Source: a virus
DNA: 64,000 nt
Direction: 5' to 3' (one strand)
Virus record (IMG/VR): IMGVR_UViG_3300011113_000123
Coordinates: 32,001 to 96,000 of that record
Shown one piece after another: positions 30,766 through 51,682 of the stretch (its first letter is position 1; each line of letters starts with the position of its first letter). A program made the translations under genes and the position numbers. The notes beneath the pieces are model-generated. The model worked only from the letters and a program-made list of their open reading frames with translations. It made no database searches and had not been told where the DNA came from.

Positions 30766-31169
30766 ACACATCAGTCGAAAATATGATCGAGGTAAAGCTC
30801 CGATCAGCTGAAGACTTTCTAAAGATCCGTGAAACGCTCACTCGTATTGGCGTAGCATCGCGTCGTGATAAGGTATTGTTCCAGTCATGTCACATCCTGC
30901 ATAAGCAGGGTCGATACTACATCGTTCACTTCAAAGAACTCTTTGCCCTCGATGGCAAGCCCACGAACTTCTCTGACGAAGATAAGGGTCGTCGCAATAC
31001 GATCGCTAATCTGCTCGCCGAATGGGAGCTGATCGATATTGTTGACGCCGAACGCACTAAGGATCCTGTGGCTCCGCTGAATCAAATCAAGATTCTAGCG
31101 CACAAGGAGAAGCACGAATGGAAACTCGAAGCCAAGTACAATATCGGCAAAAAGAAGTCAGGCGACTAA
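30762..31169 (+). CDS. regA: Translational repressor
   Basis: DFLKIRETLTRIGVAS, QSCHILHKQGRYYIVHFKELF. Confidence 0.96.
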   Translation: MNTSVENMIEVKLRSAEDFLKIRETLTRIGVASRRDKVLFQSCHILHKQGRYYIVHFKELFALDGKPTNFSDEDKGRRNTIANLLAEWELIDIVDAERTKDPVAPLNQIKILAHKEKHEWKLEAKYNIGKKKSGD

Positions 31170-31293: not shown

Positions 31294-31301
31294 TATAAAT
31301 A
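31294..31301 (+). promoter_or_regulatory. Late promoter TATAAATA for hsp20
   Basis: Exact consensus 53 nt before the start codon. Confidence 0.75.
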
Positions 31302-31305
31302 ACCC

Positions 31306-31357
31306 GTGACGCCTTCGGGGTCACATTACTAACCTTGCTTAACAGGAGGTCTAAATG
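31306..31357 (+). promoter_or_regulatory. ROSE-like RNA thermometer in the hsp20 5-prime UTR
   Basis: cUUCGg hairpin (31306-31324), then ACCUUGCU-UAAC-AGGAGGU pairing the SD with a bulged G. Confidence 0.7.
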
Positions 31358-42222: not shown

Positions 42223-42430
42223 CAGGGATGATTGCCCTTGGTGTGTTCGAGCTAAAGATATGTTGTATTCTATAGGAAAAGAATACGAAGAGATTAAGAT
42301 TGGTCGTGATCTCACGCGCGAGGAGTTCAAGGAACAGTTTCCAGAAGTTAAAACAGTACCATATATAATCATTGATGGAACCGCTATCGGTGGTTATGAA
42401 AATCTGTTATCACATTATAAGCTCTCATAG
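42203..42430 (+). CDS. Glutaredoxin
   Basis: IYSRDDCPWC, TVPYI, IGGY; GTG start. Confidence 0.88.
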   Translation: MSVIIYSRDDCPWCVRAKDMLYSIGKEYEEIKIGRDLTREEFKEQFPEVKTVPYIIIDGTAIGGYENLLSHYKLS

Positions 42431-42497
42431 CTCAATTGGTTAGAGCCCGCCGCTCATAACGGTGTAGTTCCAGGTTCGAGTCCTGGTGGGAGCTCCA
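42421..42497 (+). tRNA. tRNA with CAU anticodon (Ile2-like or Met), encoded CCA
   Basis: Cloverleaf: GCTCTCA/TGGGAGC, D-arm GCTC/GAGC, CGCCG-CTCATAA-CGGTG, CCAGG-TTCGAGT-CCTGG, T73, CCA. Confidence 0.9.
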
Positions 42498-44153: not shown

Positions 44154-44471
44154 ATGAAGTCGTTTAGACAGTACTGCAACGAAGAGTTTTCTTATGTCGA
44201 AGAATCCTCAGAAGGTACAACTTTGAAGGATTACCCGCATCTCCATAAGCATGTTGCGGAAAAACAAAAGAAACAGAAACTTCCAGCCCATTTCATGCAT
44301 AATGTTGGCGATACTCCGGTACATCCTAAGTCTGCAGCTGCTCACAAAAAAGCAGACAGTGCTTTGTCTAGCGGGCATCCTACAGCAAAACGTCGCGCTG
44401 ACGACGTGTATCGCGGCACCTATGATTACGAGGGTTCAGCTGAACGTCGCGTCGCAAACGCAAAGAAGTGA
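44154..44471 (+). CDS. Putative internal head protein
   Basis: MKSFRQYCNEE capsid-targeting-like N-terminus; late promoter; K/H-rich. Confidence 0.6.
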   Translation: MKSFRQYCNEEFSYVEESSEGTTLKDYPHLHKHVAEKQKKQKLPAHFMHNVGDTPVHPKSAAAHKKADSALSSGHPTAKRRADDVYRGTYDYEGSAERRVANAKK

Positions 44472-44497: not shown

Positions 44498-45466
44498 ATG
44501 GCTAAAACGATTTCAATCGCTGTGGCAGCACGAATCAATGAAATTTCTGTTTTCAGATATGGTAGTCCTGCTAAGTATAGTTCTAGTGGCGGATTAGCCG
44601 CTAGAAGACAGCTGGAATCTGACATAGAGCCGTTTACTTCGAAAGAAGATATCAGCGAAATCGCAGATCAAGATGGTCGCGCGAAGCTGATGGTCGAGGA
44701 GTTTATCAAATGGGCTAAAAGCAACGGATACTCTGGATCCGTTGCTGATTGTTGGTGGACGGCAAAGCCAGGTGATTTGACTAGAGTAACAGGTAAAACG
44801 GTAGATTCGTCTAAGAATCCGACAGACGTGCTTTTCAAGTTCACTTCTGGTCCAGCTGGATCTGAAGGGTTTCTTGGTTTGTCTGCAAAGTCTACGGGCA
44901 AAGCTAAAGAAATTGGATTTAAGAATCCGGGTGTAGGAACGCTTGAAAATCTACTAGGTATCGAGCTATCACCTATTCTTAATGACTACGTCGCTAGAAT
45001 AGTTAAATTGCATAAGTTTTCTACGACAAGCTCGAAACGAAAAACTGAAATTAGAAGTTCTTCGAAGAAAGTTCAAGACTCTGTGGATGCAATGGGTTCT
45101 TTGGCTATGAAAGATCTAAGAGACGCTCTACTAAAAAAATATAAGGGTATCAAAGATCAGAATTTCATAAAGAACCATATACTAGATGACTGGATGAATT
45201 TTAAAACTGACGATAAGCAAAAGATCTTTCCTCCATACATAAAAGTGACTGGACAAGGAACAAAAGGTAGGTATACAGTATCTATCGTAGATCCTAATTC
45301 AAATTCTAAAATTGATTACATCAAATCTAATAAGATAACTTTTGAAGCAGTTGGTAACGAATCTATTGGTGTTAAAGCTGGAACACATCAGATTATGAAA
45401 ATTCGTTTTAAGTTTGAATCTCAAAAACTGGCTTCCTCTATGAAGTTATCTGGAGAACCTTGGTGA
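44498..45466 (+). CDS. Hypothetical protein, possible PD-(D/E)xK nuclease
   Basis: NPTDVLF...GLSAK pattern; lysine-rich and AT-rich. Confidence 0.5.
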   Translation: MAKTISIAVAARINEISVFRYGSPAKYSSSGGLAARRQLESDIEPFTSKEDISEIADQDGRAKLMVEEFIKWAKSNGYSGSVADCWWTAKPGDLTRVTGKTVDSSKNPTDVLFKFTSGPAGSEGFLGLSAKSTGKAKEIGFKNPGVGTLENLLGIELSPILNDYVARIVKLHKFSTTSSKRKTEIRSSSKKVQDSVDAMGSLAMKDLRDALLKKYKGIKDQNFIKNHILDDWMNFKTDDKQKIFPPYIKVTGQGTKGRYTVSIVDPNSNSKIDYIKSNKITFEAVGNESIGVKAGTHQIMKIRFKFESQKLASSMKLSGEPW

Positions 45467-46695
45467 AAAAGCTGTCGACGTTCATCGCTGAGGAAAAGAA
45501 TCTGCATATGGAACACATCGAGGACTTGATCCTCAATGATGGCGTCGCTGGTGCAAAGCAAATCTTCAACTTTCTTATACAGATGCGCAACATGCTTGGC
45601 GGCAGCACCACAAAGAAAGTATCTGGAACTGTGAAGTGGGATGGTGCTCCTGCTATCTTTGCTGGTGTAGATCCTCGCGATGGAAAGTTCTTTGTAGCGA
45701 AGAAAGGCATCTTCAATAAGAACCCAAAGATCTACAAGACACAAGCAGATATCGACGCTGATCTATCTGGCGAATTGGCTGATAAGTTCAGCGTTGCTCT
45801 TCGTGAGTTCAGCAAGCTAGGTATCACGTCTGGTGTATACCAAGGCGATCTCATGTTCACGAAGGGAGATGTTAAAGCAGAAACGATCGACGGGAATAAA
45901 TACTACACGTTCCAACCAAACACAATCGTCTATGCTGTTCCAACTAACTCCGCGCTAGGTAAGACGATCGCTAAAGCAAGCATCGGTGTCGTATGGCACA
46001 CAACCTATACAGGCGACTCGTTCGAGAGCATGAAAGCATCATTTGGTAAGGGTATCGTCGAGAAGCTGAAACAAGTTGGTACGATCTGGATGGACGATGC
46101 TAACTATAAGGACGTCAGCGGAACTGCTACGTTCACAGCAGCCGAAACCGAAAAGTTCAACGCCATACTTTCGCAGGCTGGTAAGATTCTACAGGGATTA
46201 CCAAGCGAAGCTGTAAATGCGTTTTCCAGAGATTCAGAGTTACTGATCCGTGTCAAAACGTACAACAACTCTAAGGTACGAGCTGGCGAAAAGATTATGA
46301 ATACGACTTCACATGTTGCTGGCTTTATCCACTATATGAACGACTATTATCAAAAAGAAGAAGATAAGAAGAAAACGCCTGCTGGTAAGAACGCAGTGAA
46401 AGCTAAGAAAGCTCAGTCGTTTGGACCTATCGTACGAACACCACTGCTTCAGCTGAAATCCATATTTGATTTTATGAACCTGATTGTTGACGCCAAGATG
46501 ATGATTATAGCAAAGATGAATTCAGCAGCGAGTGTCGATACGTTCCTACGTACACGTCAGGGATTGAAGATCACTTCGCCTGAAGGATATGTTGCAGTAG
46601 ATCATTTGACTGGTGGAGCAGTAAAGCTAGTAGATCGTCTGGGATTCAGCCAAGCAAACTTTAGTCCAGACATTATCAAGGGATGGGAGAAATAA
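45463..46695 (+). CDS. Conserved T4-like protein (DUF6267-like) with ATP-dependent ligase-type motifs
   Basis: GTG start after GGAG; HMEHIED, VKWDGAPA, YQGDL, PEGYV, AVKLVDR. Confidence 0.7.
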   Translation: MKKLSTFIAEEKNLHMEHIEDLILNDGVAGAKQIFNFLIQMRNMLGGSTTKKVSGTVKWDGAPAIFAGVDPRDGKFFVAKKGIFNKNPKIYKTQADIDADLSGELADKFSVALREFSKLGITSGVYQGDLMFTKGDVKAETIDGNKYYTFQPNTIVYAVPTNSALGKTIAKASIGVVWHTTYTGDSFESMKASFGKGIVEKLKQVGTIWMDDANYKDVSGTATFTAAETEKFNAILSQAGKILQGLPSEAVNAFSRDSELLIRVKTYNNSKVRAGEKIMNTTSHVAGFIHYMNDYYQKEEDKKKTPAGKNAVKAKKAQSFGPIVRTPLLQLKSIFDFMNLIVDAKMMIIAKMNSAASVDTFLRTRQGLKITSPEGYVAVDHLTGGAVKLVDRLGFSQANFSPDIIKGWEK

Positions 46696-46696
46696 C

Positions 46697-46801
46697 ATGG
46701 AACTCATTATCGGATTCGCAGCAGGACTCATCGTAGGATGGAACTTCCTACCTCAGCCTACATTCATTAAAGGATGGATTGATAAGATTAGCGGTAAGTG
46801 A
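46697..46801 (+). CDS. 34-aa membrane microprotein
   Basis: GGAG RBS; MELIIGFAAGLIVGWNFLPQPTFIKGWIDKISGK. Confidence 0.55.
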   Translation: MELIIGFAAGLIVGWNFLPQPTFIKGWIDKISGK

Positions 46802-46805
46802 TATA

Positions 46806-46858
46806 CTGACCCCTCGTAACACTACTCATTATAATGGTTATATCTGAAGTTGTCAAGA
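46806..46858 (-). promoter_or_regulatory. Antisense perfect sigma70 promoter element, copy 2
   Basis: Minus strand TTGACA(46856-46851)-N17-TATAAT(46833-46828); homologous to 12575-12627. Confidence 0.8.
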
Positions 46859-46864
46859 CGTTTT

Positions 46865-46872
46865 TATAAATA
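46865..46872 (+). promoter_or_regulatory. Late promoter TATAAATA
   Basis: Exact consensus upstream of the 1337-aa gene. Confidence 0.8.
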
Positions 46873-46874
46873 AA

Positions 46875-46938
46875 GGGAGCAGAAGGCTACGGCAATCCTG
46901 CTCCCAACTCATATGCGGTCAGGCCACGGCAATCCCGC
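46875..46938 (+). promoter_or_regulatory. Tandem structured 5-prime UTR motif (two hairpins sharing AGGCYACGGCAATCC)
   Basis: GGGAGCAG/CTGCTCCC and GCGG/CCGC stems enclose near-identical loops; abuts the GAGGA SD. Confidence 0.65.
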
Positions 46939-46947
46939 GAGGATAAA

Positions 46948-49900
46948 ATGAAGAGCGTTGTATTCACATTCGGGCGTATGAATCCGCCTACGACAGGGCA
47001 CCAGCTACTGGTGAACAAACTGATCGCTCTCGCTCAAACGAGCAAGTCGACTCCTCGCGTTTACTTGTCACATTCAGTCGGCAAGAAAGATCCCCTTCCA
47101 TACGATAAGAAGATCGCGTTCGCTCGTGCAGCGTTTGGTGCTATCGTACGCAAATCAAACTCAAAGAACGTTATTCAGATTCTCAAGGATCTTGAAGAAG
47201 AAGGTTTCACTCACGTCACGATGGTCGTTGGGTCTGATCGCGTTCCTGACTTCACTAGACTACTCAACACATACAACGGCAAGGAATACACGTTCGAAAA
47301 GATTGACGTCAAGTCAGCTGGCGAGCGTGATCCAGACGCAGACGATGTGACAGGTATGTCAGCCAGCAAGATGCGCGCTCTAGCTAAAGACGAAAAGGTC
47401 GCAGAGTTTCTTCGCGGCGCTCCCAACACCCTCAAAGCAGCACAAGCCAAAAGCATGTATACGGCTGTGCGTAAGGCTCTACTAGGAGAAAATGTTATGG
47501 AATATGGCCATGACGAAAAGTTCCTCGAATTCATTTTCGAACAGGATACAAAGGAAGACGACGATCTGACGGATATGCCGTCGGATGGTGAGATCTCAAA
47601 GCACTTCGATTCACTGCATCCAGACGATCTTGATCTCGACGACGCTGATGCTATGATGCTCGATGTTATTCTCGGTAACGAAGAAGAAGAGGAAGAAATC
47701 AAGGAAGCCAAAGTTCTTTCGATTCAGCAGCGTCAGAAGCTATCTCAGCGCATGAAGGCTATGTCTAAGCGTCTAGCTCGTCTTCGTCAGATCAAAGCAA
47801 AGCAGATGCCAGCTCAGCAGCGCCTTCGCATGCGCGCGCGAAAAGCTGCTATTATGCTTCTTCGTAAGCGCGCAACAGGCAAGAAAGATCTAGATTACGC
47901 TTCTCTATCGAAGTCACAGCGCGTAGCAGTAGACACTGCTCTTGTTCAGCGTTTTGGTAATAGTCTCAACAGAATCGTAGATCGTCTATCAACACGTCTG
48001 CTCCCTCGCGTACGCAAGCACGCGCAGGAGTACGTTAAGAAAGCTCGTGAAGAAGTCAAGGAACAAACACTCGATCCAAAGACAAAGAAGCACGTTTCGG
48101 ATCAGAAGCAAGATAATCCTCTGAATCTTGATGCGCTCAAGCTGAACATCTTGAATACTGATCCACAGAAAAATGATCGTGCGGCACCAGATCCAAAGCA
48201 AGCTCATCTGCATAAGAATAAGAAGGCTACACACTTCTTTAAGACATTCGATGAAGGTCGTAAGAGTTCTGCTGATAAGGACGCTCGCGATGCTGGTGAT
48301 ACCAACATCATCTATCAGATGCGTAAGACTATTAATTCGCGCGGCGAGCATGAAACAGTGTTTGCTGATGGGCACAAAGCAAACGTTTCAATCGCAGACG
48401 CCAAGAAACTTCTAGCTAAGTTTGAAGCTATTCGTATGCCTGCTGATAAGCAAGAGTTCACTATCCAGGCTGGTAAGTCTCTTTCTTCATTCAAAAACGT
48501 GCTTGCTCATGGCGTGAAGCAAGAAAAGAAGAAGATTTCGCTTGGCGGTAAGAGCTTCAAAGAGTTTTATCTTGGTGTGGGTCGCTCGCGCACTGTTTCT
48601 GCATATGATAACGATGAACCACCAGGAACTCGTCGCGTTGCTGAAGCTAAGAGCGTTGGTGGCGTAGAGCCAGATGCGAACGATGATCCTAATGTTTCGC
48701 GTAAGCCTAATCCAAAGCTAGACCTGTTGCTTCGCCTTGGTCTAGCAGATACAGACGAGCTGCAGAAGTATCGTCGTGCGCTGCGTTCTAGCAAAAAGCA
48801 AGCTCTTGGTTCGCCTGAGATGCGTAAGAAACTAGCTGATCTGTTGGATAAGCTGATTGATATCGTTACAGGCGATCCATCAACTTATTCGCGCGTCAGA
48901 TACAAGGTACAGGCTCAGGAAGCTATCTCGCTTGTTAATAAGGCTGAAAAGTCTGGTGTAGACGTAACAGTACTAGCTGAAGTGTTCATGCGCGAGATCG
49001 CAGAAACAAGTGATAACAACAGAGCTTTCAATCGCGTGAACTCATTCATTGCTGGCGGGAAAGCTGCTGAATTAGACAGCGATCTGTCAGAAAAGGCAGA
49101 TTTGCCTCACAAGTATCGTGCTGGTCTATCAGACAAAACCGCTGCTGCAAGAAAATCGCATTGGGATAAGATGAACAAGCTGTCTGATCGCGATCCTCGC
49201 GCGTACGAGCCAGCACCTGGAGATGCGACTGCAAAAACAAAACCATCGAAGCACACGCTAAAGTACAAGAGAATGTACGGAGAAGAAGCTATGGACGAAA
49301 GTTCTGAAACAGGATTAGCTGCAAAAGCTAAGAAGTCTGGTGTTTCGCTCGGAACGCTGAAGAAAGTGTATCGTCGTGGCGTCGCAGCATGGAACTCTGG
49401 TCATCGTCCAGGCACAACTCCGCAGCAGTGGGGAATGGCTCGCGTCAACTCTTACATCACAAAAGGTAAGGGAACCTATCATGGCGCAGATAAGGATCTG
49501 CGTGAAGACGAGCTGAATGAAAAGGGTCCAGGTCTGTGGGCTAACATTCATGCAAAGCGTCAAAGAATCAAAGCTGGCTCTGGTGAGCGTATGCGTAAAC
49601 CAGGATCCAAGGGAGCACCTACAGCAGATCAGATTAGAGCAGCTAAGAGCGAAGAAACACAAAACGAAGGTCAAGCTAACTGGGCTAAAGCTCGTAAAGA
49701 AAACGAACGCTCTAGCGTTGCGTATCTGAATCGCGCAAAGAAGTCATACGTTGATCGTAGTGTGACTCCATATAAAGCTGACGACGCTAAGATTGCTGCT
49801 GATTCCATGAAGGATTTCGTAGCCAGAGGCGGTAAGATTCAGCAGCTTCCGCCTGGTAAAAAGACGATCAAGTCGCTCGTTAAACCTAAGAAGTATATGA

Positions 49901-50961
49901 CGCCTAATCAGGCTTCAAAGATTACAGAACAGAACATGACGACACATGATGCAGTTCCTCTCTCGAAGAGAGTGAAGCGCGTTAAGAGCTTCCATGCTTT
50001 CCATCCTCCAGTGAAGGAAACGGTGCAGCGTGATTCTGATATTAGAATGGTTAAAGTTCGTATGCCCGATGGAACTACCAAGTTCCGTAAAGAACGTGCG
50101 CCAGCTAAAGTTCAGCAGGAAATGTATACAGGTTCGGAGCCAACTACAACTAATCCAGCTGATCCAGCAAGTCGTTTCGTAGGAACTAATGCTATTCGTC
50201 AGACGTATGCTAATGTAACTCCTGGCCAGGGATCAGTTGCAGGTGAAATTGCAGTAGCGAAGTATGCGCCCGAAAAGGTCAACTACACATCGTCAATGGC
50301 TAAGAAGACGCATACAGAAGTGGATCAGTCTAAGGATAACCTGAGCAAGAAACACTTCAATGACATTCGCAAGGCTCTTGGTGGTATTCGTGAATCGCAT
50401 GATCTTAACGAAGCGTTTGCTGCTGGATTTGAACTAGCTCCATTCGCGCGCGATTATGGTATGACAGTTCAGTCAGCGTTTGAGCATCATCCAGACGTAG
50501 AACGTATGATGGACGAGTCCAATACCAAAACGACGAAAGCGATTGTTTATAAGGACAATAAGCCATTCGCTATATATCCAGATATGAAATCTGCTCAGAA
50601 AGAATACTATGGTAAGGATGGTTATTCTATCGGCACTGTATCTTTGAGTAAGTCTAAGGCTTTAAAGAAATTAAATCCAGGTCTCAAGATTGTTGAAGAC
50701 TCAATGGATGAAGCTACATATCAAGGGCGCAAAGTTCCACTTAACAAACCTATGAAGGGTGATGTTAAGAAGTCAAAAGTTTATGTTGATCCAGACGGCG
50801 ACGGCAAAGCTAAAAAGATCAACTTTGGTGATAAGAATCTAAGTATCAAGAAAGATCAACCTGCTCGTAAGAGATCATACTGTGCTCGCTCTAGCGGTCA
50901 GGGTAATTTAACTAAGAAAGATAGTGCCAACTATTGGTCACGTAGAGCATGGAATTGCTAA
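46948..50961 (+). CDS. Cytidylyltransferase-like (HxGH) nucleotidyltransferase fused to a multi-module basic polyprotein
   Basis: FGRMNPPTTGH, VVGSDR, MSASKMR in the first 183 aa; later modules (WGMARVN, KKINFGD..SANYWSRRAW) separated by xxE linkers. Confidence 0.8.
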   Translation: MKSVVFTFGRMNPPTTGHQLLVNKLIALAQTSKSTPRVYLSHSVGKKDPLPYDKKIAFARAAFGAIVRKSNSKNVIQILKDLEEEGFTHVTMVVGSDRVPDFTRLLNTYNGKEYTFEKIDVKSAGERDPDADDVTGMSASKMRALAKDEKVAEFLRGAPNTLKAAQAKSMYTAVRKALLGENVMEYGHDEKFLEFIFEQDTKEDDDLTDMPSDGEISKHFDSLHPDDLDLDDADAMMLDVILGNEEEEEEIKEAKVLSIQQRQKLSQRMKAMSKRLARLRQIKAKQMPAQQRLRMRARKAAIMLLRKRATGKKDLDYASLSKSQRVAVDTALVQRFGNSLNRIVDRLSTRLLPRVRKHAQEYVKKAREEVKEQTLDPKTKKHVSDQKQDNPLNLDALKLNILNTDPQKNDRAAPDPKQAHLHKNKKATHFFKTFDEGRKSSADKDARDAGDTNIIYQMRKTINSRGEHETVFADGHKANVSIADAKKLLAKFEAIRMPADKQEFTIQAGKSLSSFKNVLAHGVKQEKKKISLGGKSFKEFYLGVGRSRTVSAYDNDEPPGTRRVAEAKSVGGVEPDANDDPNVSRKPNPKLDLLLRLGLADTDELQKYRRALRSSKKQALGSPEMRKKLADLLDKLIDIVTGDPSTYSRVRYKVQAQEAISLVNKAEKSGVDVTVLAEVFMREIAETSDNNRAFNRVNSFIAGGKAAELDSDLSEKADLPHKYRAGLSDKTAAARKSHWDKMNKLSDRDPRAYEPAPGDATAKTKPSKHTLKYKRMYGEEAMDESSETGLAAKAKKSGVSLGTLKKVYRRGVAAWNSGHRPGTTPQQWGMARVNSYITKGKGTYHGADKDLREDELNEKGPGLWANIHAKRQRIKAGSGERMRKPGSKGAPTADQIRAAKSEETQNEGQANWAKARKENERSSVAYLNRAKKSYVDRSVTPYKADDAKIAADSMKDFVARGGKIQQLPPGKKTIKSLVKPKKYMTPNQASKITEQNMTTHDAVPLSKRVKRVKSFHAFHPPVKETVQRDSDIRMVKVRMPDGTTKFRKERAPAKVQQEMYTGSEPTTTNPADPASRFVGTNAIRQTYANVTPGQGSVAGEIAVAKYAPEKVNYTSSMAKKTHTEVDQSKDNLSKKHFNDIRKALGGIRESHDLNEAFAAGFELAPFARDYGMTVQSAFEHHPDVERMMDESNTKTTKAIVYKDNKPFAIYPDMKSAQKEYYGKDGYSIGTVSLSKSKALKKLNPGLKIVEDSMDEATYQGRKVPLNKPMKGDVKKSKVYVDPDGDGKAKKINFGDKNLSIKKDQPARKRSYCARSSGQGNLTKKDSANYWSRRAWNC

Positions 50962-51241: not shown

Positions 51242-51682
51242 ATGGATCCACTCGTAGAGTCGCTCAAGAAAGTTCTAGCGAGTAGCTTTTCTTTCTATCT
51301 GAAGGCGCACAACTATCACTGGAACGTAGAAGGTCATAGCTTCTCGGAGTATCACGCCTTCTTGGGTGATCTCTACGCAGAAGTCTGGGGTGCGGTTGAT
51401 CTCATCGCAGAACACATCCGCACTCTAGACGCATACGTTCCTGGTTCACTTACACGTTTCCAGCAGCTGACTTCAATCGAAGATGAGCTTGCAGTTCCAA
51501 CTAGCCGCATGATGATGGCTAAGTTGTTTGCTGACAATCAGCGCATTCTTAACGATCTGCAAGCAGCTCATGCTGTTGCTGAGTCTGCTGGTAAGCGTGG
51601 TATTGTAAACTTCCTTGAAGATCGCATCGACATTCATGAAAAGCATGCTTGGATGCTTCGTTCATTTACTAAAGGTGAATAA
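51242..51682 (+). CDS. dps: Dps ferritin-like DNA-protection protein
   Basis: KAHNYHWNVEG..F...H, D.IAEHIR, HEKHAWML. Confidence 0.92.
   Translation: MDPLVESLKKVLASSFSFYLKAHNYHWNVEGHSFSEYHAFLGDLYAEVWGAVDLIAEHIRTLDAYVPGSLTRFQQLTSIEDELAVPTSRMMMAKLFADNQRILNDLQAAHAVAESAGKRGIVNFLEDRIDIHEKHAWMLRSFTKGE

Follow-up and report, generated by a model that had tools for sequence, protein, structure and literature searches.

Introduction

The T4 gene 43 operator and the MS2 coat hairpin are autogenous phage translational operators. The T4 gene 32 pseudoknot, mentioned by Fremin et al. 2023 (PMC10690425), is another. The RNA module that we describe here resembles these operators in being a structured leader at the ribosome-binding site of a single gene, for which we propose binding by the gene's own product. 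It differs from them in its 4x4 internal loop, 2-bp stem and YNMG loop, which often come in tandem, and in that its target is a late, probably head-packaged protein and its candidate binder has no known function. Judged from sequence, the module would work like the known autogenous operators, yet it belongs to no Rfam family.

Two riboswitch-like or phage-specific groups of RNAs also invite comparison. In the guanidine-II (mini-ykkC) riboswitch both hairpins are required, the loops are ACGR, and the RNA leads bacterial transporter genes. Our element recalls it in having two short, similar hairpins and a linker just before the Shine-Dalgarno sequence; unlike it, the module has a YAHG loop and a conserved internal loop, suffices as one copy and matches no Rfam model. 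Identity with guanidine-II was considered and rejected, as covariation fixes the YAHG loop and hairpin 1 is lost in three close relatives. GP20-a (RF02991), GP20-b (RF03003) and the candidate RNAs of Fremin et al. 2023 (PMC10690425) are likewise conserved hairpins directly upstream of one phage gene family; our module differs from those described there in its downstream gene and in having no Rfam match, and it may be among that paper's unnamed candidates. The YNMG tetraloop (PMC2346598) covers the module's cap only, not its internal loop or function.

Leader of the late gene

The window, a stretch of 64,000 nucleotides, is part of a 157.6-kb T4-like phage genome; its features are collected in Table 1. 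A sequence-only reading had reported two hairpins between a late promoter and a Shine-Dalgarno sequence, with a shared interior and with the second hairpin ending right before GAGGA. These observations are correct, and both interiors are exact AGGCYACGGCAATC matches (at 46884 and 46921). Its description of the loops stands in part: the cap is a tetraloop, but of the YAHG/YNMG type across the family rather than YNCG, and the asymmetric internal loop is a property of hairpin 1 here, the canonical form being symmetric.

The leader fold with both hairpins has a free energy of -28.9 kcal/mol (z = -2.97; 2 of 200 shuffles were as good). Under our motif model, which includes both copies, module 1 scores 20.8 bits and module 2 scores 30.9 bits. 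Since two AGGCYACGGCAATC matches with at most 2 mismatches also occurred in 11 of 100 shuffles of the 64 kb, such a pair is not rare by itself, and the case for the module rests on conservation. By analogy with T4, the transcript would start 1-3 nt downstream of TATAAATA, which would place hairpin 1 at the 5' end.

Table 1. Features of the leader and of the genes on either side of it.
Feature	Position	Strand	Remarks
DUF6267 gene	45460..46695	+	RNA-ligase-like nucleotidyltransferase fold with KWDG; neighbor, not required for the motif
T4-type late promoter TATAAATA	46865..46872	+	Invariant or nearly so in 10 relatives
Module 1 (distal)	46875..46905	+	8-bp outer stem, 3x4 internal loop, GC/GC mini-stem, UACG loop
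Module 2 (proximal)	46915..46938	+	4-bp outer stem, UCAG/AAUC 4x4 loop, GC/GC mini-stem, CACG loop
Shine-Dalgarno GAGGA	46939..46943	+	Directly 3' of module 2; invariant in aligned relatives
ATG of 1337-aa ORF	46948	+	Downstream of GAGGA
Gene for modular late protein, led by the element	46948..50961	+	1337 aa
HIGH-superfamily nucleotidyltransferase (NTase) domain	46948..47493	+	PHROG "cytidyltransferase"
Arg/Lys-rich (basic) domain	47692..48057	+	Another candidate RNA binder; many motif-led genes lack it
DUF5824-like helical domain, divergent "a" type	48913..49131	+	Best candidate operator-binding domain; fold pLDDT 92
DUF5824 helical domain, conserved basic "b" type	49297..49515	+	Also common in motif-less loci

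Three further elements lie just upstream. A sigma-70 promoter on the minus strand (46856-46828), with perfect TTGACA and TATAAT hexamers (12/12) 17 nt apart, stands back to back with the late promoter and faces the 3' end of the DUF6267 gene in antisense orientation. In 10 relatives both hexamers are conserved, as are some 25 nt downstream of them; no listed ORF of at least 50 aa lies directly ahead of the promoter, and antisense RNA is a possible product. A conserved CTGACC before the late promoter (46806-46811) could pair with the 5' strand of hairpin 2 (46915-46922), over 6 bp here and 8 bp in L002, and so open module 2 in read-through transcripts, but the complementarity is not kept in L003 and L004. 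Between the DUF6267 gene and the promoters there is also an unlisted hydrophobic ORF of 34 aa (46697-46801), present in L001 and L010 as well.

Structure and covariation of the module

The module spans about 24 nt and reads, in strand order, outer stem, NNAG, 2 bp, YAHG, 2 bp, ARWC, outer stem, so that a 4x4 internal loop (NNAG/ARWC) separates the outer stem from a 2-bp mini-stem capped by a YNMG-type tetraloop. In an alignment of 99 distinct modules, partly selected by pattern, A8, G15, A18 and C21 are invariant. In this alignment 85% of the cells are paired, compared with 60% in shuffles (0/500) and 23-51% in slid registers, and the mini-stem is 99.5% paired. Compensatory changes are present in both stems. 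The outer mini-stem pair is GC in 66 modules, CG in 17, UA in 12, GU in 2 and AU in 1; the same pair types recur in the modules of loci selected through the protein (n=71: GC 48, UA 10, CG 9, GU 2, GG 2). In the latter set the loop-closing pair is CG in 62, GC in 6 and UG in 3, and 66 of the 71 loops read Y-N-(A/C)-G, under a scoring that favors such loops. The asymmetry between G-U and A-C is weak (21 vs 14), and we do not take it as evidence for RNA. That leaders of homologous phage genes carry a conserved, covarying RNA module is supported, with 130 distinct leaders having it.

The most conserved positions are unpaired bases of the internal loop, and the stems vary freely. As most terminal loops are YNMG, a type of tetraloop known to be stable (PMC2346598), the internal loop is likely the recognition site. 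The same conservation bears on the idea that the leader binds nothing and is a structural 5' stabilizer and fixed attenuator that sets the translation rate of a late mRNA. YNMG tetraloops are stabilizing (PMC2346598), a hairpin stands at the presumed 5' end, and the stem abuts or holds the Shine-Dalgarno sequence, all as this idea would have it. A plain hairpin would be more stable, however, conservation concentrated in unpaired bases over freely varying stems is not what it predicts, and in L001 and L010 hairpin 1 has turned into a plain hairpin while module 2 is intact. We therefore regard a purely structural leader as rather improbable.

Distribution of the module

Copies of the module in other phages were found through homologues of the downstream protein and by pattern scans of viral contigs. 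The module occurs in distinct leaders of T4-like phages, in tandem in 82 of the 130 and, by the threshold used, as a single copy in 48, and it sits just after a late promoter at one locus per genome. The motif model found only the two leader copies in this genome and at most one true locus in each of 29 other phage records. A third hit in G001 and extra hits upstream of DUF6267 in L395 and L399 lie in coding-like sequence with no promoter or stem and were dismissed as chance. There is no convincing cellular copy: when one common variant was run as an exact pattern against 185,579 prokaryote genomes, the single match fell in a MAG, on a phage fragment that carries a late promoter.

At gathering score, the window and 9 motif loci matched no Rfam 15 models other than those of tRNAs, and even at E <= 10 nothing fell over the motif; it thus matches none of the families, riboswitches, GP20-a/b, wcaG and manA included. 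Our literature searches, which did not extend to the supplementary lists of Weinberg 2017 and Fremin 2023, returned no paper describing the module, so that an RNA motif family with clear covariation appears here that we have not found described.

Hairpin 2 can persist without hairpin 1 or its core in relatives that share 77-93% protein identity: the loss is seen in L001, L002 and L010, and module 2 is retained in 10 of 10 aligned relatives. Module 1 is thus apparently dispensable, and one copy can suffice. Carriers are also found among phages cultured on laboratory hosts. In Stenotrophomonas phage DLP6 the module lies directly before a "cytidyltransferase" gene, and the genome also has an "a" domain. 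Phages phiM12 and phiN3, reached through the protein as a forward test, each combine an "a" domain with a variant hairpin, which has a longer left strand and a UUCG loop and immediately precedes the Shine-Dalgarno sequence; both variants were recognized by eye, the motif model having missed them. The module was not found in Melnitz, HTVC008M, C48C1 or S-ShM2, where the NTase is present, and Ochrobactrum phage OC has the basic domain only, with no motif at that gene.

Coupling to the ribosome-binding site

Two layouts relate the module to translation initiation (the counts that follow are not independent). If no more than 9 nt separate the last module from the AUG, the mini-stem is of the CC/GG or UC/GA type in 51 of 63 cases, and in these same 51 the loop and the 3' strand of the mini-stem read AAGGG, AAGGA or ACGGA, that is, a Shine-Dalgarno sequence; another Shine-Dalgarno sequence is present in only 2 of the 63. 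None of 60 distal modules reads in this way. When the module is set further back, as in this window, a separate Shine-Dalgarno sequence follows the stem in 31 of 44. Conserved structure thus overlaps or abuts the ribosome-binding site, as in a translational operator. Because both layouts place a hairpin on or against the initiation site, control of translation is indicated.

Domains of the downstream gene

The downstream protein is built of shuffled modules in a row. Its NTase domain gives weak profile hits to PPAT, NMNAT and MJ0951, and CTP_transf_like is found in 59 of 73 homologues. The helical DUF5824-like domain, about 65 aa long, comes in two types, the conserved basic "b" and the divergent "a". 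Fold searches with it gave no clear known fold in the PDB (best Z 5.6) and otherwise only viral relatives; a profile search of the basic domain against PDB sequences gave no match, and literature searches on DUF5824 and DUF6267 returned nothing. In unrelated small phages the helical domain lies in or near head genes. The "b" type occurs in unrelated phages (L298-L302: HTVC111P, DSL-LC01, MED4-184, CRP-831 and Salinibacter phage 1_25), several times near portal or head genes or inside an ORF annotated as major capsid protein, with no RNA motif.

It is the helical domain, and not the NTase, that accompanies the RNA. Among complete ORFs of a viral set selected through the RNA, 48 of 53 have the helical domain, 35 the basic domain and 19 the NTase; of the 5 ORFs lacking the helical domain, 2 have a divergent copy, 1 has it in the next gene, and 2 appear to be chance matches. 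A different pattern, run on metagenomes, gave 39, 35 and 4, respectively, among 41 complete ORFs; this set shares clades with the viral set. Of 88 complete motif-led ORFs, 85 have the helical domain (87 counting the next gene), and the module is limited to leaders of a single gene family or operon. Often the NTase has a gene of its own on the upstream side of the late promoter, and what the module then leads is the gene holding the remaining parts; the module does not follow the NTase.

This bears on the proposal of the sequence-only reading that the hairpins are a tandem aptamer for a nucleotide linked to the downstream enzyme. A small-molecule riboswitch, for a nucleotide, an NAD precursor or an ion, would close the ribosome site when its ligand binds. 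In keeping with it are the conserved loops and variable stems, the frequency of tandem copies, the position over the ribosome site and the nucleotide-chemistry enzymes of the locus. Against it, the unit is very short, single copies are common and hairpin 1 is gone in close relatives; the enzyme domain is usually missing from the regulated gene, so that the motif-led genes do not share a link to a ligand; phiM12 keeps its variant copy before an NTase with degenerate motifs; and the module is confined to one late gene family, with the prokaryote scan yielding a phage sequence only. We consider a riboswitch very improbable, and we give just as little credence to its more specific form, in which the module would be a minimal aptamer and its ligand a nucleotide-type signal that the NTase and its RNA-ligase-like partner make or consume. 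If that form were true, it would constitute a phage-only riboswitch class with the Shine-Dalgarno sequence built into the binding hairpin, and would put a name to the product of an uncharacterized enzyme pair of T4-like phages.

Proposed mechanism and choice of binder

Based on these comparisons, we propose that the module is probably a translational operator bound by a protein, whichever protein that may be; of the options raised by the sequence-only reading, an autoregulatory operator appears to fit best. In our model, late RNA polymerase would start at the promoter and the leader would fold into one or two modules. The protein would read the conserved internal loop, with A and G on the left and A and C on the right, while the YNMG loop and the 2-bp mini-stem would hold the shape. 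Once bound, it would clamp the proximal hairpin on or beside the ribosome-binding site and lower translation, and a second copy of the module would add affinity. The likeliest binder is the regulated gene's own product, by way of its small DUF5824-like helical domain, which would give negative feedback. The product is probably destined for the phage head, and packaging would then remove the repressor.

Binding by the gene's own helical domain is a tentative assignment, which may turn out either way. It draws on the partition of the two domain types. Among loci picked by the "a" domain, the motif is found in 78 of 79, and the remaining locus has no upstream DNA. In 101 NTase loci, the motif occurs with an "a" domain in 50 and with a "b" domain only in 6; 43 have neither motif nor "a", and the 2 with "a" and no motif look "b"-like by eye, so that no convincing "a" locus lacks the motif. 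The cultured phages DLP6, phiM12, phiN3 and OC are in line with this partition. Several of these locus sets were chosen by motif or domain and share clades, and nine "b" domains in the DUF6267 set were typed by eye. On a quick tree the association is clustered, with 3 independent pairs (median p 0.5; none opposite on average), too few to reach significance, so that the protein link is not significant after phylogenetic correction. Several observations weigh against the assignment. The "a" domain is on average net acidic (mean charge -1.8 vs +8.2 for "b"), which is atypical of an RNA binder; many motif-less loci have "b" domains; in the complete genome G008 the motif is accompanied by just one "b" domain; and in L118 a tandem module leads the DUF6267 gene, the gene with the NTase and "a" helical domain coming second in the operon.

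These observations leave some room for the same operator with a binder acting in trans, such as the NTase, DUF6267, the basic domain, a head protein, RegA or a host protein, in which case the helical domain would be no more than a marker of the target gene. Nearly all motif loci contain the NTase and DUF6267 genes, upstream or downstream, this genome encodes RegA, and the "a" domain is not basic. We nevertheless find a trans binder unlikely: there is one site per genome and not a regulon, the NTase and DUF6267 are mostly found without the motif, DUF6267 was not detected in phiM12 or phiN3, and a search of five partial motif-bearing genomes, run without a positive control, did not detect the basic domain. 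Known RegA sites are unstructured, which counts against RegA, and the hosts of the cultured carriers (Stenotrophomonas and Sinorhizobium) belong to different classes. The N-terminal NTase domain, which had been named as a protein to assay for binding, likely gives way to the internal helical domain. A second late promoter, with a UUCG-capped hairpin directly after it (31294-31330), lies downstream of regA (30783-31148) and is unrelated to the module.

If binding by the gene's own helical domain holds, it would be the first function for DUF5824-like domains, namely sequence-specific RNA binding by a helical domain of about 65 residues, and would constitute feedback control of a T4-like late gene. 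With an RNA and a protein of such small size, the two together could be used as a compact switch for translation.

The DUF6267 neighbor

DUF6267 is almost always next to or fused with a HIGH NTase, an uncharacterized enzyme pair common in T4-like phages. Its earlier label as ligase-like is reasonable: its predicted fold resembles those of RNA ligases (Z 8.9, rmsd 3.6 and 184 aligned residues against a nick-sealing RNA ligase structure), and the K, D and G of its KWDG are invariant. A profile search against PDB sequences gave no match.

With such a neighbor, the module might be a tag that marks the transcript for modification (capping, ligation) or co-packaging by the DUF6267 enzyme or the NTase, or, as had been suggested, a substrate of the ligase-like enzyme. 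The ligase-like fold, the module's place near the 5' end of the RNA and the report of the NTase family in cyanophage virion proteomes, whose authors caution about co-purification (PMC10665884), would suit a tag. Only 5 of 80 loci selected through DUF6267 have the module (many of these loci are short), most NTase loci are likewise without it, phiM12 and phiN3 pair a variant module with no detectable DUF6267 and, in phiM12, a degenerate NTase, and a tag leaves the Shine-Dalgarno coupling unexplained. We thus hold the enzyme tag to be the most doubtful of these readings, and the substrate proposal finds no support in the same loci.

The N-termini of the proteins starting at 44154 and 45460 resemble the T4 capsid-targeting sequence, which suggests that these two proteins may be packaged in the head. 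Elsewhere in the window, a single tRNA-Met(CAT) lies at 42421-42497, and a Dps/ferritin-like gene (51242-51682) is found two ORFs beyond the large gene.
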